In this document: positions 3,959-38,582 of the stretch, in pieces
Numbering within the stretch: the stretch's first letter is position 1
How the letters are laid out: every line of letters begins with the position of its first letter
Source: Desulfobacterales bacterium
Lineage (GTDB): Bacteria; Desulfobacterota; Desulfobacteria; Desulfobacterales; 4572-123
Assembly (NCBI GenBank): GCA_963667755.2
Contig: CAXXLK010000002.1
Span: forward strand, 928,118-968,117
Length of the DNA: 40,000 bases
Direction of reading: 5' to 3'
The notes under the pieces: model-generated
What the model was told of the DNA's origin: nothing
Database searches by the model: none
Seen by the model: only the letters and a program-made list of their open reading frames with translations
Position numbers and translations under genes: made by a program

Positions 3959-3982
3959 ATCCTCCTCCTTTGAATGCGTTAT

Positions 3983-5653: not shown

Positions 5654-5788
5654 GGGTAATTCTCAAAAAGATAAATCCGATCGACTAATAGCCGCGTACT
5701 TTTTTCAGGTATGCCTTGAGATCTCTGTCTATATCCCTATAAAGCATCATATGGGTTGCCAATTCCAAACAGCGAGGCATCAGCCAGT

Positions 5789-9848: not shown

Positions 9849-10669
9849 CGGTTCAACCTGTTTTTAAGGTAGTGATCATAGAGGTGCCGGACCATCTGAT
9901 GGGGGTTCTGGCCGTCGATAAAAACACAGGCCTGTTTTGTCTTGGGGCGCTCGAGATCCACAAGGGTTTTTCCTTTTGGGCGTATGCTGTTGTCGGCGAC
10001 GGTCAGGTCCCTGCCTGGCACGATGGTTACCTGCCTTTTTTTCGCAGCCAGTTTCTGTTTCAGTGTGGGAAGGCGCAGACAGGGTGCGTCCAGGGACTGG
10101 CCGATGGTCAGCACCAGCGGCAGCCTGACGGTCTGCACCAGAATCGCGCCGTCAGTCCGGCTCTCTACTGTCAACCGGTCCGGTTCGTCTGTCCTGATCA
10201 CCCGGGTCACTTCGCGAATACAGGGCCACCCAAGCCGTTCTGCAATCAACAGCCCGGTCTGCCAGTTGTCGCCATCCCCGCCCTGGATACCTGAAAAAAC
10301 AAGCTCGTGGCCGTTTCGCCGGATATATTCGGCTATCAGAAAGGAGATACCGGATGGATTGAACCTCAGGTCCAGGTCCGCGCTGCACTGGATTCTTACG
10401 GCATGGTCATACCCGATGGCCATCAGGTGCCTGAGGAACAGGTCTCCCTGCGGGTCATCCACGGTCAGGGCGGTAAGGTCTGCCGTGTCCGGCAGGTGTC
10501 CTGATGGGTGTGAGAGGGTGAGCGCCATTTCCAATGCACTTTCGTCAAAGCAGTTGAATATCCGCCTGACAAAACCGGTATCGACACAATGACGCTCATC
10601 CCAGGTCCAGTCCTTTTCGGACAACCTTGCGTAATCGGCTATGATCTTGAAACAAACGATGATTTTCAT
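9845..10669 (-). CDS. etfB: Electron transfer flavoprotein beta subunit (FixA/YdiQ-like)
   Basis: 274-aa ORF. It starts MKIIVCFKII..., contains FDESALEMAL, and pairs directly with etfA. ATGA overlaps at both ends. Confidence 0.8.
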   Translation of the reverse strand: MKIIVCFKIIADYARLSEKDWTWDERHCVDTGFVRRIFNCFDESALEMALTLSHPSGHLPDTADLTALTVDDPQGDLFLRHLMAIGYDHAVRIQCSADLDLRFNPSGISFLIAEYIRRNGHELVFSGIQGGDGDNWQTGLLIAERLGWPCIREVTRVIRTDEPDRLTVESRTDGAILVQTVRLPLVLTIGQSLDAPCLRLPTLKQKLAAKKRQVTIVPGRDLTVADNSIRPKGKTLVDLERPKTKQACVFIDGQNPHQMVRHLYDHYLKNRLNR

Positions 10670-12123
10670 TTGTCCATGGGATAGATGGTGCCTGCGTTCA
10701 TGATGCCGTTGGGATCAAATTGATCCTTTAACCCTTTCAAAATATAATAGGCTGATCCGTGCTCAATTTTAGTCCAGGGGGTCCGGTATTTGCCAATGCC
10801 ATGGTGGTGCACCATCGAGCCCCCGACCTTCAGGGTTTCCTCCACAATCAACGCATTTAACGGAATGTGGTACTTGGTGATCTCTTCCTCCGGTTTGCAG
10901 TCTTTGACATCGTAGTCATAGACAAAGTACAGATTGGTACCGGTCTGGTAGCTGTGGGAAGAATGTCCGCCCAGCATGGTCAGATCGTCCGCATGGGGGA
11001 AATCCGACCGGATCCGTTGGATGGCGTTTTCATAGATGGTGTTGATCGTATCCCAGTTGCCCGAGACTTCCGTGGTGAACCCGATGTGATGGTTTTTGCG
11101 GATGAGTTCACGTTCCTCGGTAATTTTATCCGGTCCCCAGCACAGATGGTTGAACCAGTTCTCGACAATTCGACTGTCAATGCGCCGGCATTCCGTGTAG
11201 TTGTCGACAATCTCTTCGATTCCCCGGGCCGTGGCCTCGGCCAGGTGTTTATTGCCCTCTGCCAGGAACATCAGAACGCACTGGTCGGGCGCAAACTGAT
11301 CGAAACTGTGCTGGGTGCCGTCTTCCGCATCGTAAAGGCGCGCCATCGAAGGGCGATACCCATGGACCATGACTTCCCGCAGGATCTCAAACCCTTTTTC
11401 CATGGAATCCAGCCGCCAGGCCAGGAACTGGTTGTTTTTCGGGAAATATTTGAAAATTTTAACGGTGACTTCGGTAATAAAGCACAGTGCCCCTTCATTG
11501 CCGATGATCACGTGGCGGATATCCGGGCCGCATGAACGGCGGGGAACGTTTTTAATCCGGGTGATTTCACCGTTGGGGAACACGGCTTCCAGTCCGACGA
11601 CCATATCTTCGATGGCGCCGTAGAGGGTGGAAAACTGGCCGATGCTGCGGGTGGCCACCAGGCCGCCCATATGGGCCAACGGTTTTGACTGGGGAGAATG
11701 GCCGGTGGTATACCCCTGCTCCCGGAGCCGGTCTTCCAGATCACCTAACACCACACCGCACTGGGTTGTTGCCAGCATATTGGTGGGATCGATCTTGATG
11801 ATCTGATTCATCTGTGACCCGTCAAGCACCACGGAATTTTCAACGATGGTTTCCAGCCCCCCCTCCGTGGCGGTGCCCCCGGTTCGGGCCACGGAATTGA
11901 TTTGATTCTGGTTCAGGAAGGTCAATACATCTGCGACCTGCTTCGCGTCTGCCAGCTTGACCACGGCCGCAGGGATCGGGGTGGTATAAACACCGAATAT
12001 TGTTTCGTATTTTTTATACCGATCATGGCTGTTTTCCTGTAGCACCCTGGCATCGGTGATCACGCGCTGCTCACCGACAATGGTTTTGAGCTGATCGACA
12101 ATCGCTTCACGGGTCAATGTCAT
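10666..12123 (-). CDS. FAD-linked oxidase (GlcD / alkyl-DHAP-synthase-like)
   Basis: 485-aa ORF with VARTGGTATEGGLE, DPTNMLATTQCGVVLGDLE and GPDIRHVIIGNEGALCFITEVTVKI, the pattern typical of the PCMH FAD-binding domain. Confidence 0.8.
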   Translation of the reverse strand: MTLTREAIVDQLKTIVGEQRVITDARVLQENSHDRYKKYETIFGVYTTPIPAAVVKLADAKQVADVLTFLNQNQINSVARTGGTATEGGLETIVENSVVLDGSQMNQIIKIDPTNMLATTQCGVVLGDLEDRLREQGYTTGHSPQSKPLAHMGGLVATRSIGQFSTLYGAIEDMVVGLEAVFPNGEITRIKNVPRRSCGPDIRHVIIGNEGALCFITEVTVKIFKYFPKNNQFLAWRLDSMEKGFEILREVMVHGYRPSMARLYDAEDGTQHSFDQFAPDQCVLMFLAEGNKHLAEATARGIEEIVDNYTECRRIDSRIVENWFNHLCWGPDKITEERELIRKNHHIGFTTEVSGNWDTINTIYENAIQRIRSDFPHADDLTMLGGHSSHSYQTGTNLYFVYDYDVKDCKPEEEITKYHIPLNALIVEETLKVGGSMVHHHGIGKYRTPWTKIEHGSAYYILKGLKDQFDPNGIMNAGTIYPMDK

Positions 12124-12182
12124 GATAAATCCTTTTTTACGTATGATTGGTAAATAAACCTGTTTTTATCCGTTCATTCTTT

Positions 12183-12959
12183 TTATCGTACCATATAGCC
12201 TCCGTCAACAATGAGCACCTGGCCATTCAAATAGTCGGAGGCCCGGCTGGCCAGAAACACGACCGTTCCCATCAGGTCCTGGCGGTTACCCCAGCGATTG
12301 GCGGGGATACGATCGAGGACCCGTTGATTGGTTACCGGATTGCTCCTGGTCCGGGTTGTCATGTCGGTGGCATAATAGCCCGGTGCAATACCGTTTACCT
12401 GGATATCGTATTGTGCCAGTTCATCGCCGTAGGACTTGGTCAGCCCTGCGAGGCCATGTTTTGTCGCCGCATAGGCCGGACCGTCCCGTCCTCCCAGGTA
12501 AGAATAGAGGCTGCAGATATTGATTATCTTACCGCTTTTCTGGGGGATCATTATCTTGGCCGCTTCATGACTCATCTCAAATGCGGCTGTAAGGTTGACG
12601 GCCACCATGGGATCCCAGTCAGCTCGGCCAAATTCCAAGACAGGCTTCAACCGGCTGATACCGGCATTGTTGACCAGAATGTCCAGGCTGCCGAATTTTT
12701 TCAGGCAGGTTTCAATGATCTGCTTCGGTGCGCCGTTCCCCGTGATGTCAATTTCCATCAATTCAAGGGCCACACCCTGCTTTTCAATTAATTGCCGGGC
12801 TTCGCCATTATCCGTGACATAACTGGGAATGAAAAGATTGGCGCCGGCTTTTGCCAGGGCAGCTGAAAACGCAAGCCCCAATCCTCTGTTGCCGCCCGTC
12901 ACAATGGCTGTTTTCCCTTTCAGGGAAAAAAAATTTAATGAAAAATCATCTATTTTCAA
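12183..12959 (-). CDS. Short-chain dehydrogenase/reductase, KduD-like
   Basis: 258-aa ORF with TGGNRGLG (TGxxxGxG), NNAG and YAATKHGLAGLT (YxxxK). The overall pattern resembles 2-deoxy-D-gluconate 3-dehydrogenase. Confidence 0.85.
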   Translation of the reverse strand: MKIDDFSLNFFSLKGKTAIVTGGNRGLGLAFSAALAKAGANLFIPSYVTDNGEARQLIEKQGVALELMEIDITGNGAPKQIIETCLKKFGSLDILVNNAGISRLKPVLEFGRADWDPMVAVNLTAAFEMSHEAAKIMIPQKSGKIINICSLYSYLGGRDGPAYAATKHGLAGLTKSYGDELAQYDIQVNGIAPGYYATDMTTRTRSNPVTNQRVLDRIPANRWGNRQDLMGTVVFLASRASDYLNGQVLIVDGGYMVR

Positions 12960-13047
12960 AGGGTTAAACTCCTCTTAAATGGTTTTTAATGGTAATAGAC
13001 ACTATCATGTCCTTTGTTTATATAACGAATCCTTTTCCCAGATAGTG

Positions 13048-14523
13048 TTACGAAGATAAGTCAGATCGATTATCTGCCGCGCACCTTTGTAGGTATGCCT
13101 TGAGATCTCTGTCCAGGTCCCTGGAAATCATCATGTCCGGTCGATTTGCAAGGATCTCTTTATAGCGTCGGTTGGCGCGGGTCATGATGCTCTCTTTACC
13201 GTTGGACGCCCAGTTGTCATAGGACTGCCAGCATGAGACCGTGGGAAGCCACTGGCTTCTGAACCGTGCAAAGGTATCTTCATGGGGGAGATAACTGCCG
13301 CCGGGTCCCACTTCTTTTATGACATCCAGGGACAATTCACCATCGGAGGTGTCGACCCCTTCGCAGATACGGATCACCCGGCTCATCATCTCCTCGTCAA
13401 TGATGAATTTTTCATAGGAAATGGTCAAAATGGCATCCAGTACACCAAATACCTGCTCGATCATGTGGCCGCCGGACATCATTCCCATCATCATGTTCTG
13501 CATGGTGTCATACCCGGCCTGGATATCCACCTCCTTGGCGTCAGTCATACCGGCCATAATGCGGGTGGGCACTTTGTAAAAATCAATGGCCATCTGGAGA
13601 CAGGTCGAGTTGATCAAAAATTGTTCCGGGGGGGCATATATGCAAATGGCGGTTCTCATATCGGCAACCGTGGATGCCGGGCAATATACCATGGGCCCGC
13701 CGGGATTGATCAATTGCACCAGGGCATTTCCGGCCAGTACCTCAGCATTTTGCTGAACAATACTGCCAAAAAGGCTCATGGGCGCTGTGATGCCTGCCAG
13801 GGCACATGGCAGAATATAAACCGGCTGATTTCTGCCGGCATATGCAATGATGGTGTCAAGGGTTTCCGTGGCATATTTCAATGGGCTCAAGGGGTTGGTG
13901 CTGACCCCGATACAATAGTTTGTTTCAAGAAATTTTTCACCGAACACCATTTCCACCATATCAAGGGATTCTTTTGCTTTTTGGGCAACGGTACAGCTTC
14001 CGATGATGGGTTTGTCTGTATGTTTGATGGTTTCGTAAATCATGTACAAGGCCCGCTCGGTGTCCGCTACATCATCCGGCGCCACGGGGGTGGCGCCGGT
14101 GAGTTTTACAATGTCGCTGGCCTGGGAGAGTTTCTGAAAATTAGCGTAGTCCTCAAGAAGTCCCCGGCGTTTTCCGCTGTCCATATCTTCACAGAACACG
14201 CATCCCACATTGGGGTGGGGGGCAAAACCATCGCCAATGGTCACCGATTGTGCGTCATTTCTTGCCACGTGGCGATATGTCGTTGGGGCCTGTTCCATGG
14301 CGGCTTCCGCCATGGGGCCTGGAATGAATACGGTTTTCCCGTCCACCCTGGCCCCATGGCGTTTAAAGATTTCAAGGGCCTTTTCATGTTCGAAGATGAT
14401 GCCGCACTGTTCCAAAATTTCGATACTGGCGTCGTGTATCCTGGGCAGGTCGGTATTTTTCACTATTTTGACACGAGGCAGTTTTCTTGTTGCGGAATTA
14501 CAGAAGGTATTGGGTGTAATCAT
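13048..14523 (-). CDS. MttB-superfamily methyltransferase, non-pyrrolysine type (candidate quaternary-amine:corrinoid methyltransferase)
   Basis: Uninterrupted 491-aa ORF, colinear with the two TAG-containing mttB genes in this window. VPTRIMAGMTDAKEVDIQAGYD aligns with LPSFAAGG[TAG]GDSKVVDYQSGHE, placing a Met codon where the paralogs have TAG. An AGGAG RBS lies 8 nt upstream. Confidence 0.85.
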   Translation of the reverse strand: MITPNTFCNSATRKLPRVKIVKNTDLPRIHDASIEILEQCGIIFEHEKALEIFKRHGARVDGKTVFIPGPMAEAAMEQAPTTYRHVARNDAQSVTIGDGFAPHPNVGCVFCEDMDSGKRRGLLEDYANFQKLSQASDIVKLTGATPVAPDDVADTERALYMIYETIKHTDKPIIGSCTVAQKAKESLDMVEMVFGEKFLETNYCIGVSTNPLSPLKYATETLDTIIAYAGRNQPVYILPCALAGITAPMSLFGSIVQQNAEVLAGNALVQLINPGGPMVYCPASTVADMRTAICIYAPPEQFLINSTCLQMAIDFYKVPTRIMAGMTDAKEVDIQAGYDTMQNMMMGMMSGGHMIEQVFGVLDAILTISYEKFIIDEEMMSRVIRICEGVDTSDGELSLDVIKEVGPGGSYLPHEDTFARFRSQWLPTVSCWQSYDNWASNGKESIMTRANRRYKEILANRPDMMISRDLDRDLKAYLQRCAADNRSDLSS

Positions 14524-14538
14524 ACGTCATCTCCTAAG

Positions 14539-15057
14539 TTACCCTCTTGCCAGGGCCAGCAGGTTAACACCCAGCTGGTGGCGTTTTTCAGCCGGACAGC
14601 CGTTTTCGATGCGCTGTTTCATCTGCAGCCCGTTGAGCTTGCGCATCTGCTTGTCACCCTCGACAAAGACGATGGCCTCGGGTTCGCATTCCTTGACGCA
14701 GGCCGGGTCTCCGCCGCAGTAATCGCATTTGAAGGCGATATGGTCGCTGCCCATCTCGATCATGCCGTAAGTACAGGCGTCCACGCAGTCGCCGCAGCCG
14801 TTGCATTTTTCGGCATTGACCAGCACAACCCCGTCGGCATCTTTGGTGATGGCCCCCTCCGGGCAGGCCTTCATGCAGTCGGGCTTGGGGCAGTGAAAGC
14901 AGATGCTGGGTACCGAATATCCCCTGAGGGGGAAATTGTTGATATGAATTCTGGCCTTGGTGGGCTGGAACAGGCCTTGTTTAACCGCGGAGCAGACATA
15001 GACGCAACGGTTGCATCCGGTGCAGAGTTCAGGATTGGCAAATATATGTTTTTCCAT
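14539..15057 (-). CDS. 4Fe-4S dicluster (poly)ferredoxin
   Basis: 172-aa ORF with several Cys clusters (CTGCNRCVYVC, CFHCPKPDCMKACP, CNGCGDCVDAC, CDYCGGDPACVKEC). It starts 23 nt after the AOR stop. Confidence 0.85.
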   Translation of the reverse strand: MEKHIFANPELCTGCNRCVYVCSAVKQGLFQPTKARIHINNFPLRGYSVPSICFHCPKPDCMKACPEGAITKDADGVVLVNAEKCNGCGDCVDACTYGMIEMGSDHIAFKCDYCGGDPACVKECEPEAIVFVEGDKQMRKLNGLQMKQRIENGCPAEKRHQLGVNLLALARG

Positions 15058-15080
15058 GAGTTGTATTCCTCCTGGGGCTT

Positions 15081-16844
15081 TTAGAATTGGTCAAGACCTA
15101 GCTGGGCCAGCTTTTCCGGGGTGGGAACGCCATTTTTATCCCATCCGCGCTTTTCGTAGTACAAGGCCAGGCAGTGGTCGAAATCTTCCGGCGCAAACAC
15201 CCGTCCGGTGTGTTCGCCCTTTTGGAGCTGCTGTGTCATCTGCTTGACCGGCAGATAATCGTCTGCACGGGTGAGACCGGCCCTGAGGTTGAACAGGCGC
15301 AGAATATTCCAGATCTTCTCCCCGGCATGTTCCAGCTGCCCGGCCGTGACCGTTTCCCCCGTGGCCACGGAGAGAATGTCGGCAATGATGGGCGCTGTGA
15401 TCGAACCCCAGAAGTCGCAAAAGCCCATGGACCATTTGATGGTCGCAAAGTTTTGACCGTCAACCACGTCCCGGGCCATGGCCGCCAGGTCAAAGGGGGT
15501 TTCACTGAACATGGGAAAGGCGCGCATGTGGCAGCCCCCGCGTTCGCTGGTGGCATACGCCAGTCCCATGCCGTAATTGGAGCGGGGGTCATAGGCCGGG
15601 AATTCAAGGCCCTTGGCTTCGGAGGTTAAATCCTGGCTGTCATACTTGGCAGCCAGCTTTTTGGCCCCCAGGGCCAGGTCTTTGCCGCGCCGGGTGGAAA
15701 GGGTGGCGATTTCAGTGACCGCCTTGAGGTATTCGACGGGTTCGCCGAATTTCAGATTGAAGTCGTGGCGGCCTTTTTCGGTCATGTCCATGGCCAGGCC
15801 GATGATGTTGCCGCAACTGATGGTATCCAGGCCCAGATCATCGCACAACCGGTTGAAGCGGATGACCTGCTCCAGGTCGTTGATTTCGCAGTTGCTGCCC
15901 GCCAGGCAGAGGGTCTCGTATTCCGGTCCTTCCATCTCGGCACCATTGATGTGGGTGAATTTGCCGCAGGCCAGGGGGCAGGTGGAACAGGCCCGGTTTC
16001 CCAGCTTGGCGGCCTTGATGGCCTCGGTGTTGATGCCTTCCTTGGCGTCGTTAACGCCATAGCTGAAATTGCGGGTGGGATGGCCCCCCATATCGCTGAT
16101 GACATCCACCAGCATCGCAGTACCGTCGGTTTTGGCCCACAGGTTGGCCTCGGTCAACAGGTCGGTTTTTTTGTACGCGTTGACCTTTTCGATGAAGGCG
16201 GGCACGTCCGCCACTTTGATACCGCCGGTACCGCGCACCACAATGGCTTTTAACTTTTTGCTGCCCAGGATGGCGCCACCGCCGCTGCGGCCCATCTGGC
16301 GGTAGGCCTCGGTGCCGAGGCAGGCATGGGATACCATATTCTCACCGGCCGGCCCGATGGCCAGCACTTTGGCTTCGGGGGTTCCCACAGCCGCCTGCAG
16401 TCGTTCTTCGGTTTCGAAAAGGCCCTTACCGGCCAGGAATTGGGCACTCTCCAGACTCACCTGGTCATCCATGATCTTAAGATAGGTCGGCTTTTTGGCC
16501 GCGCCTTTGATGATGATGCCGTCATAGCCGGCAAATTTGAGTTCAGGTCCGAAGGCGCCGCCGGTATTGGAAGAAAAAATAGTGCCGCTATGGGGCGACT
16601 TGGACACCAGATTGAACCGGGCGGTCATGGGGGCTGACGTGCCGCCCAGGGGCCCGGTCATGATGATCACCGGATTTTCAGGGGAAAGGGGGTCGACTTT
16701 GGGGTCAACCAGATCCCAGTAGTAACGGACCGCCAGCCCCCAGCAGCCCCAGTATTCCTTGATCCAATCTTTCCGCAGCGGTTCTTCTGAAATTTGCCCG
16801 GTGCTGAGATCAACAACGAGTAATTTACCTGCATAAAGATTCAT
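15081..16844 (-). CDS. aor: Tungsten-type aldehyde:ferredoxin oxidoreductase
   Basis: 587-aa ORF. The N-terminus reads GKLLVVDLSTGQ...GGTSAPMTARFNLVSKSP...GYDGIIIKG, and the C-terminus reads YYEKRGWDKNGVPTPEKLAQLGL, both typical of the AOR family. A GGAGG RBS is present. Confidence 0.9.
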   Translation of the reverse strand: MNLYAGKLLVVDLSTGQISEEPLRKDWIKEYWGCWGLAVRYYWDLVDPKVDPLSPENPVIIMTGPLGGTSAPMTARFNLVSKSPHSGTIFSSNTGGAFGPELKFAGYDGIIIKGAAKKPTYLKIMDDQVSLESAQFLAGKGLFETEERLQAAVGTPEAKVLAIGPAGENMVSHACLGTEAYRQMGRSGGGAILGSKKLKAIVVRGTGGIKVADVPAFIEKVNAYKKTDLLTEANLWAKTDGTAMLVDVISDMGGHPTRNFSYGVNDAKEGINTEAIKAAKLGNRACSTCPLACGKFTHINGAEMEGPEYETLCLAGSNCEINDLEQVIRFNRLCDDLGLDTISCGNIIGLAMDMTEKGRHDFNLKFGEPVEYLKAVTEIATLSTRRGKDLALGAKKLAAKYDSQDLTSEAKGLEFPAYDPRSNYGMGLAYATSERGGCHMRAFPMFSETPFDLAAMARDVVDGQNFATIKWSMGFCDFWGSITAPIIADILSVATGETVTAGQLEHAGEKIWNILRLFNLRAGLTRADDYLPVKQMTQQLQKGEHTGRVFAPEDFDHCLALYYEKRGWDKNGVPTPEKLAQLGLDQF

Positions 16845-26369: not shown

Positions 26370-26954
26370 TCATAGGCGACTGTGCAGTCTGGCCAATAGA
26401 TCGGGCAACCATCCTAATGCCAGCTGTTCGAGGGCTTCCCGGGCGGGCCGTCCGGTAGTGGCCTCCCAGCTCCGCTGGCGGTAGAATTCTGCCGCTGCGG
26501 TATCGACTTCCGAGCGGTTCATACGTTTGCCATGGGTGGGTCTACCTTTGAGCGGTGTCGTAAAAATTTTTCTGCAAGTTTGTCCCTATCCCGGCTAAAG
26601 CCTTCCCGATAATTAAAGGCCCGCATCACATTCACCCGGCGGGCACCGACGGTAAGCAGTTCTTCCAGGGTTACGTTCCACCCGGTCACGGACTGAACGA
26701 GCGTGACATAATCGTCAGGCCCGTACAGCTGCCATGAAGCGCCCCAACAAAACGGGCAGACACAGAGGCTGTCGGCCCGGTTGAATATATCCTGGATCTG
26801 AATTGTATGTCCCGGCTTTAGCGACGCCTGCATCACTGATCAGGAAGACGTTCCTGGATTCCGTTAATGCAGAAATTTCATCTCCTATCTGTTCGACGCG
26901 ATCAACCCCGAAGGAGATGTTGCCAACCCCTGGAAAGGTAATTGGAATCATCAC
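26370..26954 (-). pseudogene. Chimeric relic: N-terminus of an iron-type alcohol dehydrogenase joined to the frameshifted C-terminus of an aldehyde:ferredoxin oxidoreductase
   Basis: 26954-26811 encodes MMIPITFPGVGNISFGVDRVEQIGDEISALTESRNVFLISDAGVAKAG, an Fe-ADH N-terminal pattern. From about 26803 a different frame reads IQIQDIFNRADSLCVCPF...VTGWNVTLEELLTVGARRVNVMRAFNYREGFSRDRDKLAEKFL. After a frameshift near 26556-26570, beside an A5T5 run, it reads TPLKGRPTHGKRMNRSEVDTAAAEFYRQRSWEATTGRPAREALEQLAL, with the stop at 26370-26372. This parallels the C-terminus of the intact AOR at 15081-16844. Confidence 0.65.
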
Positions 26955-27230: not shown

Positions 27231-28703
27231 TCATTCTTTGATCCCCAGCTCTTTTTCGGCGCCGTCAACAATGTCACGCAGCTGTTTGAGGACAGCCCCT
27301 GAAAGTTTCGGTGGTTCATATGTTTCAAGAATGTGTCGAACCGCTTCGCCGGCCCGCTCGTATGCATCCTTTGAACCGTTTTCTTCCCAGCGGAATCTCA
27401 TCTGCCGGTTCAGCAGCTTCGGGCTTGTGGTCAGCCGCATGTGCTTGAAGGTGGATTCGTGAGCCAGATAATCCTTGAAAGGGCCGACCTCCTTGATGGT
27501 ATCGATGGACAGGGTTTCGTCATTGACCTCAATGCCGTTTACCGTCCGTTTGATCATACCGGCCACTTCGTTATCCAATACCAGTTGTGCCAGATCAAAG
27601 GTGATACCCATTTCCAGCATTCCCAAGCCGTAAATTACGTTGCACCCTGACAACGCAGGCAAGATACCGGTGATGGTTTTTTCATGGCCGGACTGGTAGT
27701 CAACCACTTTGCTGTCGCCCTATCCACCGGCGGCGAAACTGGGCAACCCATAGTAGCGGGCAAGCCGGGCCACCGCCGCATTGATCATGGCCGTCTCAGG
27801 GGCACCCACCGTTGCCGTGGCATACTTCAGGTCCAGAGGGCAGGTGGAACTGGCATAAATGAACGGCGTCCCTTTTTTAACCAGTTGGCCCAGAACAAGA
27901 CTTGCCAGATTTTCGCTGTTTTGCTGTACCAATGTTCCGGCAATGTGGATGGGGGAAGAGCCGCCGGTCATGGCCATGCCGATACAGTTTAACCCAATGC
28001 CGTTTCGGGCCGCTTCGATAATGATGTCACAATGGTGGGACGACAGCTTCAAGGGGCTGATGGGACAGGTCACAAAGGTCAGAAACGGTCTTTCCCTGAA
28101 TTTATCCATATCCCCGGCGATGGCAGCGCACATTTCAAGAATTTTTCCGCACTGATACCGGTCCACCGGACCCAGCCAGTGATGCTTGGTCGTATTGGTG
28201 AGTGATGCCTCGGCATTGTGCAGTGCCTGCACCCTGGGGTCTTTATCATGGGAAAGCATGCAGCGTTCATAGGTTTCCACATGTTCCAGAGAATCGATGA
28301 GCCTGGCGGCCATCTCGATATCGGCCTTGGTGGTTTTACGATGTTCTCCCGTATAAGGATCGACAAACATGATGCCTTCACCAAAATTGGTGAACGTCAC
28401 CCGGTTGGCTTCCAGAACCACATCGCTCTCCGGTATGCGGCCGTAGGCATGAAACGTAGCCGGCGCCGTCCGGATCGACGCTTCCACCAGATAGGGTGGG
28501 AGGGTAACGACTTTTGTTTTTTCATTCACACTGGCGCCGGCAGCACCGAAGATCTGCCTTGCCTCTTCACTTTCCACAAAAACACCGGTGCATTTCAGGA
28601 TTTCAAGGGAACCCAGGTGTATTTCATGCACTTCGTCGTCGGTGAGTGTGTTTAGACTGAAGCCGCCGCTGGATAATTTCCCGGATTTGGTTGGTCGCTT
28701 CAT
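27231..28703 (-). CDS. mttB: Trimethylamine:corrinoid methyltransferase MttB with in-frame UAG (predicted pyrrolysine), copy 1
   Basis: Track ORFs 27720..28703 and 27231..27707 share one frame and are separated only by TAG at 27720-27722. The read-through sequence is ...YYGLPSFAAGG[TAG]GDSKVVDYQSGHEKT... The total of 490 codons is a typical MttB length. An AGGAGG RBS lies 5 nt upstream of the ATG at 28703. Confidence 0.85.
27720..27722 (-). other. In-frame UAG, candidate pyrrolysine codon (mttB copy 1)
   Basis: The plus strand reads cta and the minus strand reads GGT GGA TAG GGC GAC AGC AAA. The position aligns with the TAG of copy 2 and with a Met codon in the non-Pyl paralog at 13048-14523. 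Confidence 0.85.
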
Positions 28704-30240: not shown

Positions 30241-31815
30241 TTATTTCGCATCCGGCATGGAAGAGATGGTCCCATCCCAGGTGTCCACGAGGCCGCAGGC
30301 TTCCTGGTCTTCGGGAAACCAGGTGGCGGTGACGCATTTGGATTCGGTAAAGAAACTGATACCATCTTTGCCCATCACATGCAGATCTCCAAAAAAGGAT
30401 TGTTTGTGACCTGTAAAACCGAAAATACCCAGTGGTACCGGGATGCCGACATTGACACCCACCATGCCGGCATCGGTCCGTTTGGAAAATTCCCGCGCGT
30501 AATGGCCGTTCTGGGTATAAATGACCGAACCGTTGGCAAAACGGCTGCTGTTCATCAAGGCCAGTCCTTCCTCAAAATTTTGGACCCGTTTGACGCAGAG
30601 TACCGGGCCAAAGACTTCCTCCCAGCCGATGGTCATTTCCGGTGTCACATGGTCAAAGATGCAGGGCGCCAGATAAAAACCGCCCTCATGACCCGCTACC
30701 TTGGGATTACGGCCGTCCACGATCAGTTCGGCGCCCTCTTCGATTCCTTTTTCGATCCAGTCGGTGATAAACTTCAGATGGCCCGCGTTCAAGATGGGCC
30801 CCATGCCGGTGTCCGGGTCATAGGCAGGGCCAAGGTTCATTTCGGCTACAAATTTTTTCAGCAGCGCAATCAGTTCATCCGCAATGCACGCTTCCACAAC
30901 GATCACCGGGCAGGCCATACACCGGGCACCGGCACAGCCGCAATAGGCATTGATAATACCCCTGGCGGTTCGCTCCAGTTTTGCATCCCGCATGACCAGC
31001 GCATGGTTTTTGGCTTCGGTGAGGGCCTGCACGCGCTTACCGTTGGCAGCGGCGGTGGCATAGATGTGTTTGCCGGTTTTGGTGGATCCCACAAAAGACA
31101 CCCCTGCAATATCGGGATGGCTAAGGAGAATCTCGGCCTCATTACGGCCTGCGGTGACCAGATTGAGGACCCCCTCGGGCAGTCCGGCCTCATGCCAGAG
31201 TTCCAGGAGCCGCATGGACGTCTGGGGCACAAAACTGGCGGCTTTCAGCACCATGGTATTGCCCGTGGCGATACACAGCGGTGCCATCCAGCCATGGGGA
31301 ATCATGGCGGGGAAATTCCAGGGTGCAATACCGGCGAAAACACCGACGGGGTGTCTGTAGAGAACCGTGTCATATCCGGCGGAAGCGTTCATCAGGGATT
31401 CTCCCTTCATCAAATGGGGGGTCCCGCAGGCAAATTCGACCACTTCGTTGACTTTCAGTACATCGCCCATGCTTTCCCGCCAGTTTTTACCTTCTTCCTG
31501 GCACAACAGGTGGGTCAGTTCTTCCAGGTGTTCATCCACCAGCGCTTTCATACGATACAAAACCTGAACCCGTTTACTGACCGGGGTGTCGGCCCAGGCC
31601 GGAAACGCCGCTTTAGCGGAATGAATGGCCGATTCGACCTCTTCGGATGTGCACTGGGGCGCCATGGCGATCACTTCGCCGGTGGACGGATTATAGCAAT
31701 CCATGTATTTTGTTGCTTTTGATTCAAGCCACTGCCCGTTGACGCAGTATTTCAGTTTTTTGACCGAATTTTTTGAAGACGACCCACTCTCCATAAAATA
31801 TCGTGATTTTTGCAA
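30241..31815 (-). CDS. mmsA: CoA-acylating methylmalonate/malonate-semialdehyde dehydrogenase family aldehyde dehydrogenase
   Basis: 524-aa ORF with [32 protein letters not shown], and EAKNH in place of the ELGGK general-base segment, as in MmsA/IolA-type enzymes. The [10 protein letters not shown] catalytic-Cys region is present. The track start at 31815 is a TTG lying 10 nt after AGGAG; the alternative ATG is at 31794. Confidence 0.8.
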   Translation of the reverse strand: [524 protein letters not shown]

Positions 31816-31904
31816 AATGTTATATCTCCTTTATTTTTACGGTTTTTGTTAAATTATTAGTTGATCTATACGGAAGAATGTAAAAAATATTTTTGAATTT
31901 TTTT

Positions 31905-31986
31905 AAGGCTCCTCGCTGTTACATATGGGTAAATTTGACCGACTGCAGTCCCGGGCACCCACACGAAACAGCGAGGAACCTTTTTT
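31905..31986 (+). terminator. Long-stem hairpin followed by T6 (terminator-like structured element in the divergent intergenic region)
   Basis: Arms GGCTCCTCGCTGTT (31907-31920) and AACAGCGAGGAACC (31967-31980) pair at 13 of 14 positions, plus flanking A-T pairs. The 46-nt loop holds GGGT/ACCC and the palindromes GACTGCAGTC and CCCGGG. TTTTTT follows at 31981-31986. Confidence 0.45.
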
Positions 31987-32244
31987 AAAGATACTGTTTT
32001 AGTCATATAGCCTTGATAACTACGATGTCAAGTAAAAATAACCGTCCTTTTTACTTTTTCAGTTTATTATTATTTTATTTTCTACGTTTTAGCTTTTTTT
32101 TGTTTGAATTTTTATAATAATAGTGATAATTGAATTCTATTCTACTCCATAATAGGCATTTCAAACTAAACTGCGCGTCAACTTGAAACATTTCCATGAT
32201 GGGAGAATATCTCCATCTAAGTGTTAAAAAAAAGAGGCATTTTA

Positions 32245-32739
32245 ATGGAAAATCGAAAATTAAAGAAAAAAAACAAAACGCTGGACTTGGTCGATTGTGA
32301 AATTATTAATCTGCTGCAAAAGGACGGTAGGATCTCAAATACCGATATTGCAAAAAAAATGAGTATTTCTGAAGGAACCGTTCGCACCCGCCTGAATCGG
32401 TTGATTAAAAGCGAAATCATTCAGATTGTCGCTGTCAGCAACCCCATCAAACTCGGCTTTAAAATCGTGGGGCAAATCAGGATTCAGATAGATGTCGGCA
32501 AGATGGAGAATATTATAACAAAACTGAAAAAATTAAAAGCCCTATGGTTTATCGTCCAGACCACCGGGGGAACCACCGGTCTTGAAGCCGAATTTAACGT
32601 CAAGTCTCTGGATGAACTCAATACGTTGATTTTTGAAAACATCAACAAGATAGACGGCGTCATCAAAACCGATGTCTCCCTGATAATGGATTTTATCAAG
32701 CGACGATATGACTGGGGTACGGTGATGGATGAAAAATAA
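32245..32739 (+). CDS. Lrp/AsnC-family transcriptional regulator
   Basis: HTH segment DCEIINLLQKDGRISNTDIAKKMSISEGTVRTRLNRL plus a C-terminal RAM-like domain. I prefer the ATG at 32245 (AGAGG 7 nt upstream) over the GTG at 32221 used by the track. Confidence 0.85.
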   Translation: MENRKLKKKNKTLDLVDCEIINLLQKDGRISNTDIAKKMSISEGTVRTRLNRLIKSEIIQIVAVSNPIKLGFKIVGQIRIQIDVGKMENIITKLKKLKALWFIVQTTGGTTGLEAEFNVKSLDELNTLIFENINKIDGVIKTDVSLIMDFIKRRYDWGTVMDEK

Positions 32740-32765
32740 AAAACGCTCTTAAAAAGGAGGAAAGC

Positions 32766-34157
32766 ATGGGAAAAATTAAAACCCGAATGGGCGATGGCTT
32801 CAAGGTCGAGATGACCGAAAGCGAAGTCCGAAAAGCCCTGGAGGAAGGGACTCAGGATGCGGCAGAGCGTGCCCGGGTCGAGCCATTGTCGCCGGATGAT
32901 CTCCAACGGATTTTTGAGATTTTTACCTGTCCTTATCGAATCGTTGGCGTTGATGAGGGCAATGAGGTGGTTCTTACCTACGACAGTCTTAACACCAAAA
33001 TCAAACGGGCACAGATTTCAGCCAGCAAGATCCAGTCCCTTCAGATTTGTGAAAGGGCCCTGGGGGCAGACACCCTGGAGCTTGCCCATATCGACTACAG
33101 TTATAAACCGGTAAAACCGATCATTCCCTTTGAAAAACCGATAATGGAGCAGGCCGTCCTGATCACAATCCCGGCATTGCTCTATGGCGCCATGCCTAAC
33201 CTGGGGCTCTACAGCCAGCCGGACGGCCCATGTCCTAATCCGGCGGATCTTCTTCCCAATGGAAAAATCGCTGAAGCCAGGGCATCCTATGAAGAGGCTG
33301 CCGAATACGCCATAGCGGATATGGTTTACGTGGGTAGCGAGATGTATGAATCCGGCGCCGACGGCATCAATTTTGATACCACGGCTGCAGCCGGGGATGC
33401 GGAATTTTATGCAACTCTCAAAGCGGTGGAGATTCTCAGAAAAAAATATCCCGCCATGGGCATCCAGATGGGTATGGCCGCGGAATTCGTATTGGGAATG
33501 CACGGAGAGATTGAATATAACGGTGTCCGTCTGGCCGGGCTCTACCCTCACCAGCAAGTCAAACTCGCCGAAGAAGCCGGGGTAAACATTTTTGGACCGG
33601 CCGTCAATATCGTCACCAATGAATCGTTGCCCTGGAACATTGCCCGTTCCGTTACCTGGACCAAAGCCTGCACGGATGTTGCAAAGATTCCGGTACACGC
33701 ATGCCTGGGAATGGGTGTCGGCGGTGTCCCCCTGGCGCTTACACCGCCCATAGATGCCCTTTCACGGGCATCAAAGGCCCATGTAGAGATCTGCAGGCTG
33801 GACGGGTTGTAGGTGGGTGTCGGAGACCCGTGCGGGATGCACGCTGCACATGCAATAGTATCGGGACTGGGTGGCATACGCACTGCCGGAGATCTGGTAG
33901 CACGAATGCAACTAAATGGCTCGATGAAAATTGATGCAGCAAAAAAACATGTCGCGGATAAGTTGAAAATTTCTGTCGCGGATATTGCGGACCCGGTGGT
34001 GATGAACGAACTCCGGGAAGATCTGGATATCGGCCGCGTCAATGAGGCCCCCGGTGTGGCCAAGGGTATTGATGCGAAGTTTAGGATTGCCAGGCTTCTG
34101 GACATTAACATCAACTCGGTGAACATATTCAAGGAGAAAATAGAACGCGACATATGA
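32766..34157 (+). CDS. mtbB: Dimethylamine:corrinoid methyltransferase MtbB with in-frame UAG (predicted pyrrolysine)
   Basis: Track ORFs 32766..33812 and 33813..34157 are contiguous in one frame and separated only by TAG at 33810-33812: ...SKAHVEICRLDGL[TAG]VGVGDPCGMHAAHAIVSGLGGIRTAGDLVARMQ... It is colinear, as far as I recall, with Methanosarcina MtbB (HIDYSxKPVKP, LxYGAMPNxGLY, ASGADGxNFDTTxAAGD, LAGLxPHQQ, DGx-Pyl-xGVGDPxGM, GDLVARM). The TAG is codon 349 of 463. An AAGGAGG RBS is present. Confidence 0.85.
33810..33812 (+). other. In-frame UAG, candidate pyrrolysine codon (mtbB)
   Basis: GAC GGG TTG TAG GTG GGT GTC GGA. Conserved MtbB sequence runs on both sides in the same frame. Confidence 0.85.
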
Positions 34158-34302
34158 TTTTACATCACGGGGCGTTCCTGTATTGGACCTGAAAATTGTT
34201 TAAATGCCCCCGGCTTCTCGAAGACCGGAAGCCGCGGAAAAAATGTCCGGCGGTTACCCCAAACCAAAGATCGGAGAGTTGTCTTTTAAAAGGAGATGGA
34301 CG

Positions 34303-34955
34303 ATGACGATAATTGAAGTACGCTTTGAAGAAGCCAAAAAGCCATGGTAGCGTGTGACGCTGAAAATGCCTCGCTGGTGGCGACACAGGGTTTAGCAGAT
34401 GGGATTGACCCTGTTGAATTTTTGAACAAGGGATTCATTCCCGGAATAAATGAGGTCGGAGGGCTTTTCGGTAAAGGCCGGTTGTTTCTTCCCGAATTGA
34501 GTATCGCCGCAGAAGCCATGCGACAGGTAACCGATATTATTAATGGTGCACTTGGAGCCGCCGGAACGATTTCAAAAAAGGCAGGGAAAATTCTCATGGC
34601 CACTGTTCAGGGTGATGTTCATGATATCGGTAAAACCATTGTGGTGTCACTTTTCAAAGCCAACGGATTTGAGGTGCTGGATTTGGGGCGAGATATTTCC
34701 AACGAAAAAATTATTGAAGAAGCTGTGCGGTTTGAAGCCGATATTATCGGTACCAGGGCGCTTCTCACCACTACTATGCCCGCCCAATAAAAACTTGAAA
34801 AAGAACTGAAGAAAGCCGGCCTGAAGGGAAAAATCAAGACAATTGTTGGTGGGGCGCCCGTAACACAGAGATGGGCCCAGCGCATCGGCGCAGATGCTTA
34901 CGCCCGGGGCGCATCTGATGGTGTTCAGAAAGCAAAGCTGATGATAGGGCTATGA
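34303..34955 (+). pseudogene. Corrinoid (B12-binding) protein gene downstream of mtbB, apparently inactivated (MtbC-like)
   Basis: Cap and B12 domains are recognisable (GDVHDIGKT = DxHxxG; ALLTTT; IVGGAPV). There are three lesions. (1) The RBS-proximal start, ATG at 34303 (MTIIEVRFEEAKK), is out of frame with the body starting at 34344, consistent with loss of one A in the A5 run at 34336-34340. (2) An in-frame TAA at 34788-34790 aligns with a Lys of the paralog at 35143-35772. (3) The SxL Ser is replaced by Arg (GTRALL). The conserved C-terminus KLEKELKKAGLKGKIKTIVGGAPVTQRWAQRIGADAYA continues in frame to the TGA at 34953-34955. Confidence 0.7.
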
Positions 34956-34998
34956 ATTAGAATGGTCTGGCTCCTGCCCTGGTTGAATTATGGTTTAA

Positions 34999-35043
34999 CC
35001 CTGCAACGTAATCTTGTTATATCCGCAAGGTAATGTTGCAGGG
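34999..35043 (+). other. Extended hairpin downstream of the plus-strand mtbB/corrinoid unit
   Basis: CCCTGCAAC (34999-35007) pairs with GTTGCAGGG (35035-35043), with an inner CTTG/CAAG helix and symmetric GTAAT internal loops. There is no U-run, so a terminator role is uncertain. Confidence 0.3.
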
Positions 35044-35051
35044 GTGATGCC

Positions 35052-35112
35052 GGAAAAAAATAGCCCGGTTCCTCAGGGACTGCATGAATGCAGTATACTT
35101 TGGGACCGGGCT
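35052..35112 (-). terminator. Rho-independent terminator candidate for the mttB-mttC unit
   Basis: On the minus strand, AGCCCGGTCC (35112-35103) pairs with GGAACCGGGCT (35072-35062): a 10-bp stem with one bulge and an inner ACTGCAT/ATGCAGT helix. It is followed by ATTTTTTTCC (35061-35052) and starts 31 nt after the mttC stop. Confidence 0.6.
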
Positions 35113-35142
35113 AAAAATCAAACTTTTAAAACAGGCTGAATA

Positions 35143-35772
35143 CTATACCAGAGATTTGGCCAGCTTGGTGGCTGAACCGGCATCTGCGGCATATCCGTCG
35201 GCACCGATTTCATCGGCATATTTCTGGTTTACCGGGGCACCGCCGATGATGACCTTGACCTTGTCGCGGTATCCGGCTTCAACCAGAGCGTCGATGGTTG
35301 TTTTCATCATACCCATGGTAGTGGTGAGCAGGGCAGAGATGGCAACTATGGTGGCGCCCTGGTCTTTTACGGCGGCCACAAAAGTTTCCGGGGCTACGTC
35401 AACACCCAGGTTGATCACCTCAAAACCGGCGCTTTCCAGCATCATGGCCACCAGGTTTTTACCGATGTCATGCAGGTCGCCCTTGGCCGTACCCATGGCA
35501 ACTTTGCCGGCGGCTTTGGCATCTTCTACGGACAGCAGGGGTTTAAGTATTTCCACTGCTGCGGCCATGGCCTTGGCGGCCATGAGCACTTCGGGGATAA
35601 ACATATCGCCGTTCTGCATTTTTTCGCCGACAATATCCATGCCTTTGATCAATCCGTCATTGAGAATATCTTTTGCTTCCATTCCCTCGTTCACGGCGGC
35701 TTGCACAAGCGTTTTCAATGTTGCTGCATCGCCGGCTATCAGTGTGTTCGAAAGTGCGTTTAAATCTGCCAT
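35143..35772 (-). CDS. mttC: Methylamine-type corrinoid protein (MttC-like, B12-binding)
   Basis: 209-aa ORF with a helical cap domain plus GDLHDIGKN (DxHxxG), SALLTTT (SxL) and IIGGAPV (GG). It lies 48 nt downstream of mttB copy 2 and has an AAGGAG RBS. It terminates in TAG (35143-35145). The symbol is assigned by context only. Confidence 0.8.
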   Translation of the reverse strand: MADLNALSNTLIAGDAATLKTLVQAAVNEGMEAKDILNDGLIKGMDIVGEKMQNGDMFIPEVLMAAKAMAAAVEILKPLLSVEDAKAAGKVAMGTAKGDLHDIGKNLVAMMLESAGFEVINLGVDVAPETFVAAVKDQGATIVAISALLTTTMGMMKTTIDALVEAGYRDKVKVIIGGAPVNQKYADEIGADGYAADAGSATKLAKSLV

Positions 35773-35820: not shown

Positions 35821-37314
35821 TTATTTCTGGGAAACCGTGGCCCGTTTTTCTTTTGCTTGGGCCTCGGCATTTTCAAATATTGTGTTTAACTGGGCCTGAA
35901 TGTTTTCAGGCAATGCTTCTACCTTGTGGCTGGCGATGATGTGGGCTGCCCTGGCATAGGCTTTTTCCACAACATCCTTTGATCCATCTGCAATCCAGCC
36001 GTCACGGCTTTTTCTGTCAAAAAGGTCTCCCTGGGACTGCCGCCGCATATTTTTAAAGGTATGCGGATGGGTGATGAATTCACCGCCGTGGCCCACCTCT
36101 TTGATGACGTCAAAAGCAATGGCTTCATCGGTAATGGTAAATCCTTCGACTGCCTTCATGATCATTCTCAGCATTTCATTGTGTAAAACCGCCTGGGCGT
36201 AATCCCAGGTCAAACCGCTGTCAAGCATCCCGAGGCCGTAAATCAGGTTGGCACCTGCCAACGCCGTTAAAGTGGCCGTTAAGGTATATTCATGGGCTGC
36301 CTGCGCATCGGGCATTTTGCTGTCCACCTATCCACCGGCGACCCAGGAGGGGAGCCGGTAAAACTTGGCCAATTTGGCGATGGCAGCGCTGAACATCCCC
36401 ATTTCCGGAGTCCCCATGGCCGCCAGTCCGGTTTTAAGGTCCATGATGCTGGTGGAACTGCCGTATACCATGTGATGGCCCTTGCGGACAGCCTGTCCCA
36501 GGACAATCATGCTTAAATTTTCAGCATTATGGGTGACAAGACTGCTGGCCAGGTTGATGCAGGTGGTGCCACCCGCCAGTCCAAGGGGGTTGATTTTCAG
36601 GGGGACGCCCAGTCGACAGGCTTCAATCAGAACGTCGCAGGCATCTTTTGAATGCAGCAACGGGCTGATGGGATCACAGGTTGTGGAGAAAATCGGTCTT
36701 TCACGGAATTTGTCATCACCGCCGGCCACAACGGAGGCCATCTTAAAACAGGTCCTCAGATTTTCAACCGAGTTGATGCCGATATAGCCATGTTTGGTGC
36801 AGGAATTCAAAAAACTTTTAATGTTGTAAAGACAGCAGATATCCTGGTCCATATCGCAGGGGGTTAACGGTCTTTCAAACACAACGACCTGGTCCAGTGC
36901 ATCCAGAAATAACGTGGCGTCATCAACGTCAGCTTTTGTGGGGGTTCTTAATTTTCTGGTTTTGGGGTCGATCATCATGGGGGCTTCGCCAAAATTGACA
37001 AATCCCGACCGACCGTTTTCACAGACATAATCCTTTTCAGGATCACGGGCGCAAGCCTTAAAAGTGGAAGGGCAGGACCTGATGGCATCTTCAACCAGAT
37101 GGGCTGGAATTTTGACTATTTTGGTTCTATTATTGACAATACAACCAATTCCGTCAAAAATTTCAAGGGCCTGGGAGCTTTCCACTTTGACTCCCATTTC
37201 CCAGAGAATTTCCAGAGTAGCCAGATGAATTTTTTCCAATTCGTCATCGGAAAACATGTTCAGACCGATACCACTGGTCAGAACGGTTCCCGGCTGCAAA
37301 TTTCTTACCGCCAT
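35821..37314 (-). CDS. mttB: Trimethylamine:corrinoid methyltransferase MttB with in-frame UAG (predicted pyrrolysine), copy 2
   Basis: Track ORFs 36328..37314 and 35821..36327 are contiguous in one frame and separated only by TAG at 36328-36330: ...FYRLPSWVAGG[TAG]VDSKMPDAQAAHEYT... The gene is 497 codons and colinear with copy 1 throughout. Confidence 0.85.
36328..36330 (-). other. In-frame UAG, candidate pyrrolysine codon (mttB copy 2)
   Basis: The minus strand reads GGT GGA TAG GTG GAC AGC AAA. This is the same GG-TAG-xDSK context as copy 1. Confidence 0.85.
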
Positions 37315-37714
37315 AATTGGTTTCCTTCATTTTCATAGAAAGACGATAAAATTTCGGTTTTTTACCGGAGGCTGCCTATATATGGTATGTTTTTTCCGGT
37401 AATGAAAGACTCTCCTTGTGCGTTGCAACAGCTTTTAATTATAGATATTTTTTTGTTGAATCCCTCCTTAATTTATTAAATAAAAATTCAAAATAATGTA
37501 CCATTTGATCGCCTATAAACCCTTAAGGGCGCGGTATAATGACTCTGGGTCAAAAAGTCAATCATAATCATCACAAAAGGGTGTATTTTTATGATTCAGT
37601 GTACAAAAATACCCCCTTGATGGCATCGGCCGCCTGCATCAGTTCAGGTAAAAAGAGCTGGCTCCTGCCAAAAAGATCGCTTATTTAGTGTCCCTATCGG
37701 GGATGGTTGAAACC

Positions 37715-37732
37715 CTTCGCCTTTAGGCGAAG
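37715..37732 (+). repeat. Hairpin upstream of the IS200-like tnpA start (candidate left-end subterminal hairpin)
   Basis: CTTCGCC-ttta-GGCGAAG forms a perfect 7-bp stem 21 nt upstream of the ATG at 37753. Confidence 0.4.
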
Positions 37733-37752
37733 AAAAATATATAATTGTCGCT

Positions 37753-37878
37753 ATGCAACTTTACAAACTTGGAGCCCATACAAAAACTGATCTCAAAGCA
37801 CATGTGATTTGGATACCCAAATACCGTAAAAAAGTATTGACGGGAGAGGTAGCCATCCGAACCAGAGACATATTGCGG
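37753..37878 (+). pseudogene. IS200/IS605-family Y1 transposase (TnpA), N-terminal fragment
   Basis: MQLYKLGAHTKTDLKAHVIWIPKYRKKVLTGEVAIRTRDILR matches the HxxxxLxxHIVxxPKYRRKVLxGEV pattern. The HUH (DHVHLL) segment that should follow is missing. Confidence 0.65.
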
Positions 37879-38582
37879 TATGTACTCATGGATAGCTGGT
37901 TTACCAAGCCAGCGAACATTTGCGCACTGAGAGAACACCTGGACGTGATTGGCATGCTCAGCAAGACGCCCAAGGTTTTTGCTATGAGCACGACGGAAGA
38001 AAACGGAACTTGATGGAGATCTACCAAAATCTTACCAAGCGCCGAGGGCGAGCCAAAATACTGGCATCTACCACCGTAACACTTAGCGACGGTAAAATGG
38101 CCAAAATCGTTTTTGTCCGGGATCGCCGCAAAAAGGACTGGTTGGCGTTATTGTCCACCGATACCGGCCTGGCCGATGCCGAGGTGGTTCGTATTTACGG
38201 AAAGCGCTGGGACATTGAGGTCTTGTTCAAAATGACCAAACAGCATCTGAAACTCGTCAAGGAGATCCAATGCCGGGATTTCGATATGCTGATAGCACAC
38301 ACGACCATTGTATTTATGCGATACATGTTCATCGCCTACAGGGTGCGCGTGGAGTCGGATCACCGTATCTTTGGTGATTTGTTTTATGCATGTTGCCAAG
38401 AACTTGATGATATCGGTTTTGTTGAAGCTTTTGACAGAATAATGACTTTGGCCGTTGAACAATTACGGCAGATGGGAACGTTCTGTGAAAGAACAGCTAT
38501 GGCCTTTTTCGATAATGTGATGGCCACAGCTTTGAAGTACGTCATTTTGTCAAAGAACAGAGTGATCACTGTCAATTGTTAA
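37879..38582 (+). pseudogene. IS4-family DDE transposase, 3' fragment with a frameshift
   Basis: It begins at YVLMDSWF (second catalytic-D region) with no upstream N-terminal domain. There is a frameshift in the T5 run at 37976-37980; adding one T joins KVF to CYEHDGRK. The YREK signature YGKRWDIEVLFKMTK is present, and the stop is at 38580-38582. Confidence 0.6.

Follow-up and report, generated by a model that had tools for sequence, protein, structure and literature searches.

Gene structure and family assignment

A 40,000-nucleotide stretch of Desulfobacterales DNA (GCA_963667755.2, contig CAXXLK010000002.1, positions 928,118–968,117; hereafter the window) very probably carries one mtbB gene at 32766–34157, in which an in-frame UAG is read as pyrrolysine, the 22nd amino acid. 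The gene encodes a member of the dimethylamine:corrinoid methyltransferase family (MtbB). Starting at an ATG at 32766, the frame runs through 348 sense codons, the TAG, and 114 further sense codons to a TGA at 34155–34157. The elements of the gene, all on the forward strand, are as follows.

32754–32760, forward: Shine–Dalgarno sequence AAGGAGG, 5 nt upstream of the mtbB ATG (direct reading)
32766–34157, forward: mtbB, dimethylamine:corrinoid methyltransferase, 463 codons including the predicted pyrrolysine codon (PF09505, TIGR02368, selection)
33810–33812, forward: in-frame TAG, codon 349, the predicted pyrrolysine codon (column in homologues, position 1 of PYLIS_2)
33810–33909, forward: PYLIS_2 (RF02509), the curated mtbB "pyrrolysine insertion sequence" (cmscan)
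33878–33905, forward: mRNA hairpin with an 11-bp stem and AGAU loop, corresponding to the 3' hairpin of PYLIS_2 (codon entropy, covariation)

A preliminary description made from the letters of the window had proposed that the open reading frames (ORFs) 32766–33812 and 33813–34157 abut with only the TAG at 33810–33812 between them and together form an MtbB homologue. All of its coordinates are right, and direct reading returns the TAG as codon 349 of 463 with the flanks CRLDGL-TAG and GDLVARMQ that it had listed. The flanks in the product read ...EICRLDGL-TAG-VGVGDPCGMHAAH...TAGDLVARMQ, and the predicted read-through sequence spanning the site is ...LDGL-O-VGVGDPCGMHAAHAIVSGLGGIR.

The family assignment, proposed in the preliminary description without database searches, is borne out by profile searches with the read-through product. 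Residues 4–457 match PF09505 (Dimeth_Pyl) with 666.2 bits (cut-off 25) over profile positions 3–462 of 463, and the product scores 515.2 bits on TIGR02368 (cut-off 369.1), the NCBIfam equivalog model for [dimethylamine--corrinoid protein] Co-methyltransferase. A database protein search returned 3309 homologues, the best 120 of which are almost all exactly 348 residues long, indicating that gene callers stopped at the same codon in each. Searched against the sequences of the PDB, the read-through product gave no meaningful match (best CapW, E = 0.44) and thus no solved structure of MtbB or of a close relative.

The pyrrolysine column across homologues

For comparison at the codon level, 82 related loci were fetched and 90 homologous genes read. 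The codon at the aligned column is TAG in 89 of the 90 and is never TAA or TGA, and the frame after it stays open for about 98–119 codons in nearly every homologue whose contig reaches the next stop. This combination of a conserved TAG column and an open continuation is far beyond chance. In an alignment of eight homologues having 41–95% identity each truncated sequence likewise stops at one column, after ...DG[LV]. One of the eight is P0124, a fragment that NCBI names as MtbB and assigns to the archaeal methanogens of Candidatus Methanomethylophilaceae. Cluster representatives of full length that diverge most from the window MtbB are 47–54% identical to it, and archaeal P0124 is 47% identical; the flanks of the pyrrolysine site and the motif AGDLVARMQ are common to the window protein and the archaeal proteins. 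The TAG therefore occupies the pyrrolysine column of the MtbB family, as had been supposed; a sense codon there, which had been named as grounds for abandoning the assignment, occurs in one of the 90 homologues read.

That homologue, L079:3204 from the Deltaproteobacteria metagenome-assembled genome (MAG) AB_69_Bin_102, has TCG (Ser) at the column; neighboring residues are also changed (LVGL-S-VGVGDLMGM), and there is a tRNA-Pyl gene at a distance of 740 nt. Decay of this copy or an error in sequencing may account for the change. A full-length protein from a JGI metagenome (P0129, 463 residues, 38% identity) has Trp at the column (VDML-W-ATTGDP) and on its sequence is classed as a non-pyrrolysine member of the MtbB family.

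Selection on the TAG-containing genes

Two relatives bear on whether the codons beyond the TAG are maintained as protein. L001, a 6.1-Mb ENA contig from the same species, is 99.7% identical to the window across 14.8 kb, and L083 is the closest fetched relative after it, with an MtbB 95% identical in protein and 83% in DNA. Relative to L083, the ratio of nonsynonymous to synonymous divergence (omega, dN/dS) of mtbB is 0.03 upstream of the TAG (348 codons) and 0.10 downstream of it (114 codons), the latter segment retaining 91% amino acid identity at a synonymous divergence (dS) of 0.56. Purifying selection thus acts on the protein sequence on both sides of the TAG, including the segment that would be lost if translation stopped there.

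The differences between the window and L001 are all synonymous in mtbB (four, of which the only one after the TAG is included) and in the two other TAG-containing genes of the window, mttB1 (three) and mttB2 (two), both described below. This pattern of nine synonymous and no nonsynonymous changes is what is expected if the three genes still make functional full-length proteins. In the broken mtbC gene downstream of mtbB, the same comparison gives no synonymous and five nonsynonymous differences.

The RNA element following the UAG

The PYLIS_2 match begins at the TAG and covers model positions 1–100 of 100; it scores 68.3 bits (gathering score 36, E = 1.5e-14). The region downstream of the mtbB UAG had been given a proposed consensus structure in 2013 (PMC3639795). 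The suppression of synonymous change after the UAG, together with the hairpin found there, had been considered as a possibly new element, and this was rejected, as Rfam already holds PYLIS_2; the RNA element is known in kind, and its role is putative.

As a by-product of value, the comparison of 80 bacterial genes gives numerical evidence for the 3' hairpin of PYLIS_2 as a real RNA structure with covarying positions. Normalised codon entropy in codons 366–377 falls to 0.38, compared with a gene-wide mean of 0.87 (standard deviation 0.10) among 81 bacterial mtbB genes. Gly375 is encoded by GGA in all 81, and Leu348, preceding the UAG, by TTG in 78. The cells of the hairpin are paired in 92% of cases, compared with 85% in column shuffles (none of 500 reaches 92%) and 30–44% when the partners are slid. 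The hairpin core GGAGAUCU is invariant, and around it third codon positions covary across the 80 genes, including fourfold-degenerate ones: the pair formed by the third positions of Arg372 and Ala379 is CG in 22 genes, GC in 13, AU in 10, GU in 7 and UA in 7. The 5' hairpin of PYLIS_2 is poorly formed in the window sequence, with non-canonical pairs marked.

Pyrrolysine genes in related loci

Genes for pyrrolysine synthesis and insertion adjoin mtbB in a number of the related loci, tRNA-Pyl(CUA) being present in 20 and pylSc/pylSn in 17. A strong match over the catalytic region of PylS (pylSc) occurs in 15 of these 17, and the other two have a pylSn match only. The loci L012 and L014 show an apparent row mtbB-pylSc-mtbC-pylC-pylD, with pylC and pylD recognized by reading ORF translations. 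L013 has much gene content in common with the window and carries an apparently contiguous set of mttB, mtbB, an acetyl-CoA hydrolase gene, pylSn, pylB and pylT, where pylB was identified by reading its translation and from the source names returned in a pylB search. In the complete MAG CP070746.1, from which three loci were returned, the copy closest to the window (L009, 75%) has neither pylS nor tRNA-Pyl in its 21-kb locus; the pyl genes adjoin a paralogue 2.4 Mb away (L052).

The surrounding methylamine genes and regulator

The neighboring genes relevant to methylamine metabolism and regulation are listed below.

13048–14523, reverse: non-pyrrolysine member of the MttB superfamily, 491 residues, no internal stop (PF06253, 400 bits)
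27231–28703, reverse: mttB1, trimethylamine methyltransferase, in-frame TAG at 27720–27722 (TIGR02369, 669 bits, cut-off 525)
32245–32739, forward: Lrp/AsnC-family transcriptional regulator, 164 residues (Pfam HTH_24, HTH_AsnC-type, AsnC_trans_reg)
34303–34955, forward: disrupted mtbC-like corrinoid gene, a pseudogene (frame-corrected product matches the pyl_corrinoid and MtbC models)
35143–35772, reverse: intact corrinoid protein, 209 residues (Pfam B12-binding_2 and B12-binding; pyl_corrinoid, 199 bits)
35821–37314, reverse: mttB2, trimethylamine methyltransferase, in-frame TAG at 36328–36330 (TIGR02369, 620 bits, cut-off 525)

Both mttB genes carry a PYLIS_3 element (RF02510) at their TAG, at 27623–27722 (60.4 bits) for mttB1 and 36231–36330 (80.1 bits) for mttB2. 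The corrinoid protein at 35143–35772 is probably the partner of mttB2, and all three differences between the window and L001 in its gene are synonymous. The non-pyrrolysine MttB-superfamily gene scores 308 bits on TIGR02369, under the cut-off of 525.

The corrinoid gene directly downstream of mtbB carries two lesions when compared with the intact 217-residue gene of L083, namely a 1-nt deletion after the A-run at 34336–34340 and a CAA-to-TAA change at 34788–34790. Both are common to the window and L001. The internal stop had been considered as a second pyrrolysine site within the corrinoid gene, and this was rejected because it is TAA, not TAG. In archaea, MtbB reportedly works specifically with MtbC (PMC9842639), so the strain would need a copy of mtbC elsewhere or would use the nearby intact corrinoid protein.

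The Lrp/AsnC gene ends 26 nt before the mtbB ATG, as the preliminary description had observed. Scans of 31800–35200 for promoter and terminator consensus sequences found no more sites than in shuffled sequence and none between lrp and mtbB, and the short spacing together with the lack of a terminator-like site is compatible with co-transcription. The case for the dedicated regulatory unit that had been read into this adjacency is weak, however: among 83 loci a homologue of the regulator precedes mtbB only in L001 and L083, with a spacer of 406 nt in the latter. The arrangement is specific to this lineage and is not a conserved regulatory unit.

Other features of the window lie further from mtbB. 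Around the non-pyrrolysine MttB gene, at 2684–16844, are genes for an aldehyde ferredoxin oxidoreductase (AOR), a 4Fe-4S protein, an SDR protein, two FAD-linked oxidases, EtfAB, an FGGY kinase and an acyl-CoA dehydrogenase; together these genes may serve the catabolism of a quaternary amine. A 556-residue ORF at 3983–5653 (reverse) has no match in Pfam or NCBIfam. The AOR gene at 15081–16844 is intact; a 105-residue ORF at 26519–26836 (reverse) matches only positions 256–345 of the 385-position AFOR_C domain and looks like the remnant of another aldehyde ferredoxin oxidoreductase gene. On the other side of mtbB, the match of the window to L001 ends at 37597 and is followed by a fragment of an IS4-family transposase at 37920–38579 (positions 246–437 of a 449-position model) and then by a class-III aminotransferase gene, which suggests that the region 37597–38582 is an insertion or rearrangement differing between the window strain and L001. 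In three loci from JGI metagenomes (L002–L004, 75% identity), at 10001–12587, the gene directly after mtbB is AlaX-like, with tRNA_SAD and DHHA1 domains, and is not a corrinoid gene.

Proposed mechanism and alternative explanations

In the proposed mechanism the UAG at codon 349 would be decoded as pyrrolysine by Pyl-tRNA(CUA) and PylRS encoded elsewhere in the genome, giving a methyltransferase of 463 residues; were the UAG not suppressed, the product would be truncated at 348 residues. Homology with the archaeal enzyme suggests that dimethylamine would be bound and activated by the pyrrolysine side chain, with one methyl group going to a small corrinoid protein in its Co(I) state and monomethylamine being released. 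Tetrahydrofolate would presumably be the next methyl acceptor in sulfate reducers, with oxidation of the methyl group through the reverse Wood–Ljungdahl pathway. The gene lies in a methylamine island that also holds the two pyrrolysine-type mttB genes, the corrinoid protein and the non-pyrrolysine MttB homologue.

Several observations weigh against this picture. ARAGORN and a tblastn search with an M. mazei PylS query found no tRNA and no pylS-like sequence in the 40-kb window. Neither pylSc nor pylB was placed on the 6.1-Mb source contig (6,107,701 bp) among 30 clusters opened from the best 120 listed per search, with pylSc of L014 and pylB of L013 as queries, a result that is not evidence of absence. 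As the pyl genes of CP070746.1 lie 2.4 Mb from its copy closest to the window, absence from the window means little. The selection data bear indirectly on whether the genome has the pyrrolysine machinery, the lack of which the preliminary description had named as a refutation. TAG still terminates three of 26 ordinary genes in the window. The cognate-type corrinoid gene adjoining mtbB is inactivated, and the window ORFs scanned with Pfam include no URO-D-type, pterin-binding or RamA-type protein that could serve as the MT2 methyltransferase or the reductive activase. In L013, an MT2-like gene was recognized next to the second copy of mtbB by reading of the sequence. None of the papers retrieved describes a bacterial MtbB characterised biochemically.

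Some of these points would fit a decaying locus, in which the pyrrolysine machinery has been lost or is unexpressed, the TAG terminates translation, and mtbB survives as a relic giving an inactive 348-residue protein. The frameshift and TAA of mtbC next door, the AFOR_C and IS4 transposase fragments in the island, and the failure to trace pyl genes in the window or among the clusters inspected for the source contig all favor such decay. It is nonetheless very unlikely, as the three TAG-containing genes are intact on both sides of their TAG and differ from L001 only synonymously, in contrast to the exclusively nonsynonymous differences of the mtbC pseudogene, while the codons after the TAG of mtbB retain their low omega and the PYLIS_2 and PYLIS_3 elements are intact. 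That the locus encodes two separate proteins, one of 348 residues and one of 114 residues starting at the GTG at 33813, is scarcely credible. The GTG does directly follow the TAG, and gene callers do list two ORFs, but the stop is always TAG in the 89 homologues that have one, a single profile spans both parts, no Shine–Dalgarno sequence precedes 33813, and the non-pyrrolysine homologue P0129 is a single chain of 463 residues with Trp in place of the stop.

A different kind of doubt concerns function, in that the protein could be a true pyrrolysine enzyme of the MtbB fold that, in this bacterial clade, acts on another methylated amine or with a corrinoid partner other than MtbC. The moderate identity to the diverged representatives and to archaeal P0124 leaves room for such a change, as does the lack of a characterised bacterial enzyme in the literature found; moreover, mtbC is broken while mtbB is still under selection, and an intact corrinoid gene lies 1 kb away. 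The protein nevertheless passes the equivalog-level model TIGR02368 and shares the pyrrolysine flanks and AGDLVARMQ with the archaeal proteins, and genomes of this group usually hold several mtbB and mtbC paralogues, making an intact mtbC elsewhere likely. The alternative is accordingly considered unlikely. A further reading, in which mtbB stayed under strict purifying selection after the loss of mtbC, was fused to lrp through loss of the spacer of about 400 nt present in the closest relative, and came under new transcriptional control while using a non-cognate corrinoid protein such as the MttC-like product of 35143–35772, is improbable. If true, the non-cognate partner would relax the strict MtbB–MtbC specificity known from Methanosarcina. 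The preferred reading remains that of a single mtbB gene with pyrrolysine predicted at codon 349 and, by analogy with the archaeal enzyme, dimethylamine as its probable substrate.

Host and distribution

The bacterial context given in the preliminary description is confirmed. All named MtbB relatives are bacterial, one protein from a Desulfobacterales MAG being 77% identical; the ABC-transporter genes of the window have 77–81% DNA identity to Desulfobacterales MAG contigs and about 80% to L013; the relatives carry split pylSn/pylSc; and the window itself has two pyrrolysine-type mttB genes. A scan of species-representative genomes confirmed at least 525 stretches encoding MtbB. The best 80 of these, which were returned, are all bacterial, with no archaeal DNA loci among them, and come mostly from Desulfobacterales or Desulfobacteraceae MAGs. 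They include the cultured hosts Desulfospira joergensenii, Desulforhopalus singaporensis and Natroniella sulfidigena, the Olavius Delta 1 symbiont, and MAGs labelled Dehalococcoidia, Spirochaetota, Aminicenantes and Bacillota. An mttB gene adjoins mtbB in 39 of the loci examined.

The further claim of rarity, made for MtbB-type genes in bacteria by comparison with MttB-type genes, fails on these numbers and on earlier publications, which also do not support the view that a bacterial module for both trimethylamine and dimethylamine is noteworthy. Zhang and Gladyshev (2007) described a deltaproteobacterial delta1 symbiont of Olavius with six genes for pyrrolysine-containing MtbB and two for pyrrolysine-containing MttB, together with pylT, pylSn, pylSc and pylBCD (PMC1976440). 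Kivenson et al. (2021) reported pyrrolysine-dependent trimethylamine and dimethylamine methyltransferases in marine Desulfobacterales, with a nearby corrinoid protein, a regulator and non-pyrrolysine MttB homologues (PMC8318568). An older review placed mtbB "almost exclusively" in Methanosarcinales (PMC3941956), a remark that MAG data have since superseded. Among sulfate-reducing Desulfobacterales, pyrrolysine-containing mtbB genes are common and have been described before, and the gene in the window is correctly identified but ordinary.

The locus is a further well-resolved case of sulfate reducers apparently able to demethylate trimethylamine and dimethylamine by means of pyrrolysine, and the use of methylamines lets such organisms compete with methanogens in anoxic sediments. 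No new question is opened, the gene family, its bacterial distribution and the mRNA element having been catalogued already. Modest interest attaches to the fusion with lrp, to the location of the pyl genes, and to the fate of mtbC; the last is a by-product of value, as a natural case in which mtbB persists after the neighboring gene for its corrinoid partner was lost.

Comparison with known systems

Among the systems most similar to the window are the marine Desulfobacterales loci of Kivenson et al. (PMC8318568), with which it shares the taxonomic order, pyrrolysine-type MttB and MtbB, a nearby corrinoid protein, a transcriptional regulator and a non-pyrrolysine MttB homologue. It differs from them in the inactivation of the corrinoid gene downstream of mtbB, in the Lrp/AsnC regulator 26 nt upstream, and in having no pyl genes nearby. 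The delta1 symbiont of Olavius algarvensis (PMC1976440) is likewise deltaproteobacterial, with several TAG-containing mtbB and mttB genes clustered, and the two mtbB copies of its locus L077 both have TAG at the column used in the window; however, the window MtbB is only 59–61% identical to these and so belongs to a different paralogue clade, and pyl operon genes are reported in the Olavius organism. Relative to the Rfam model RF02509, the window sequence gives a full-length match from the UAG that keeps the 3' hairpin, whereas the 5' hairpin is poorly formed.

Archaeal MtbB, represented by MtbB1–3 of Methanosarcina barkeri and by the proteins of Methanomassiliicoccales, belongs to the same Pfam and TIGRFAM families and has the UAG at the same column, with the flanks DG[LVI]-O-[VI]GVGDP ... 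AGDLVARMQ and PYLIS_2 after the UAG. The window differs in its bacterial host, in its 47% identity to P0124 and in the absence of adjacent pyl genes, and its relatives have split pylSn/pylSc where archaea have a fused PylS. The methyl group would presumably pass to tetrahydrofolate in the window host, in contrast to coenzyme M in archaea.

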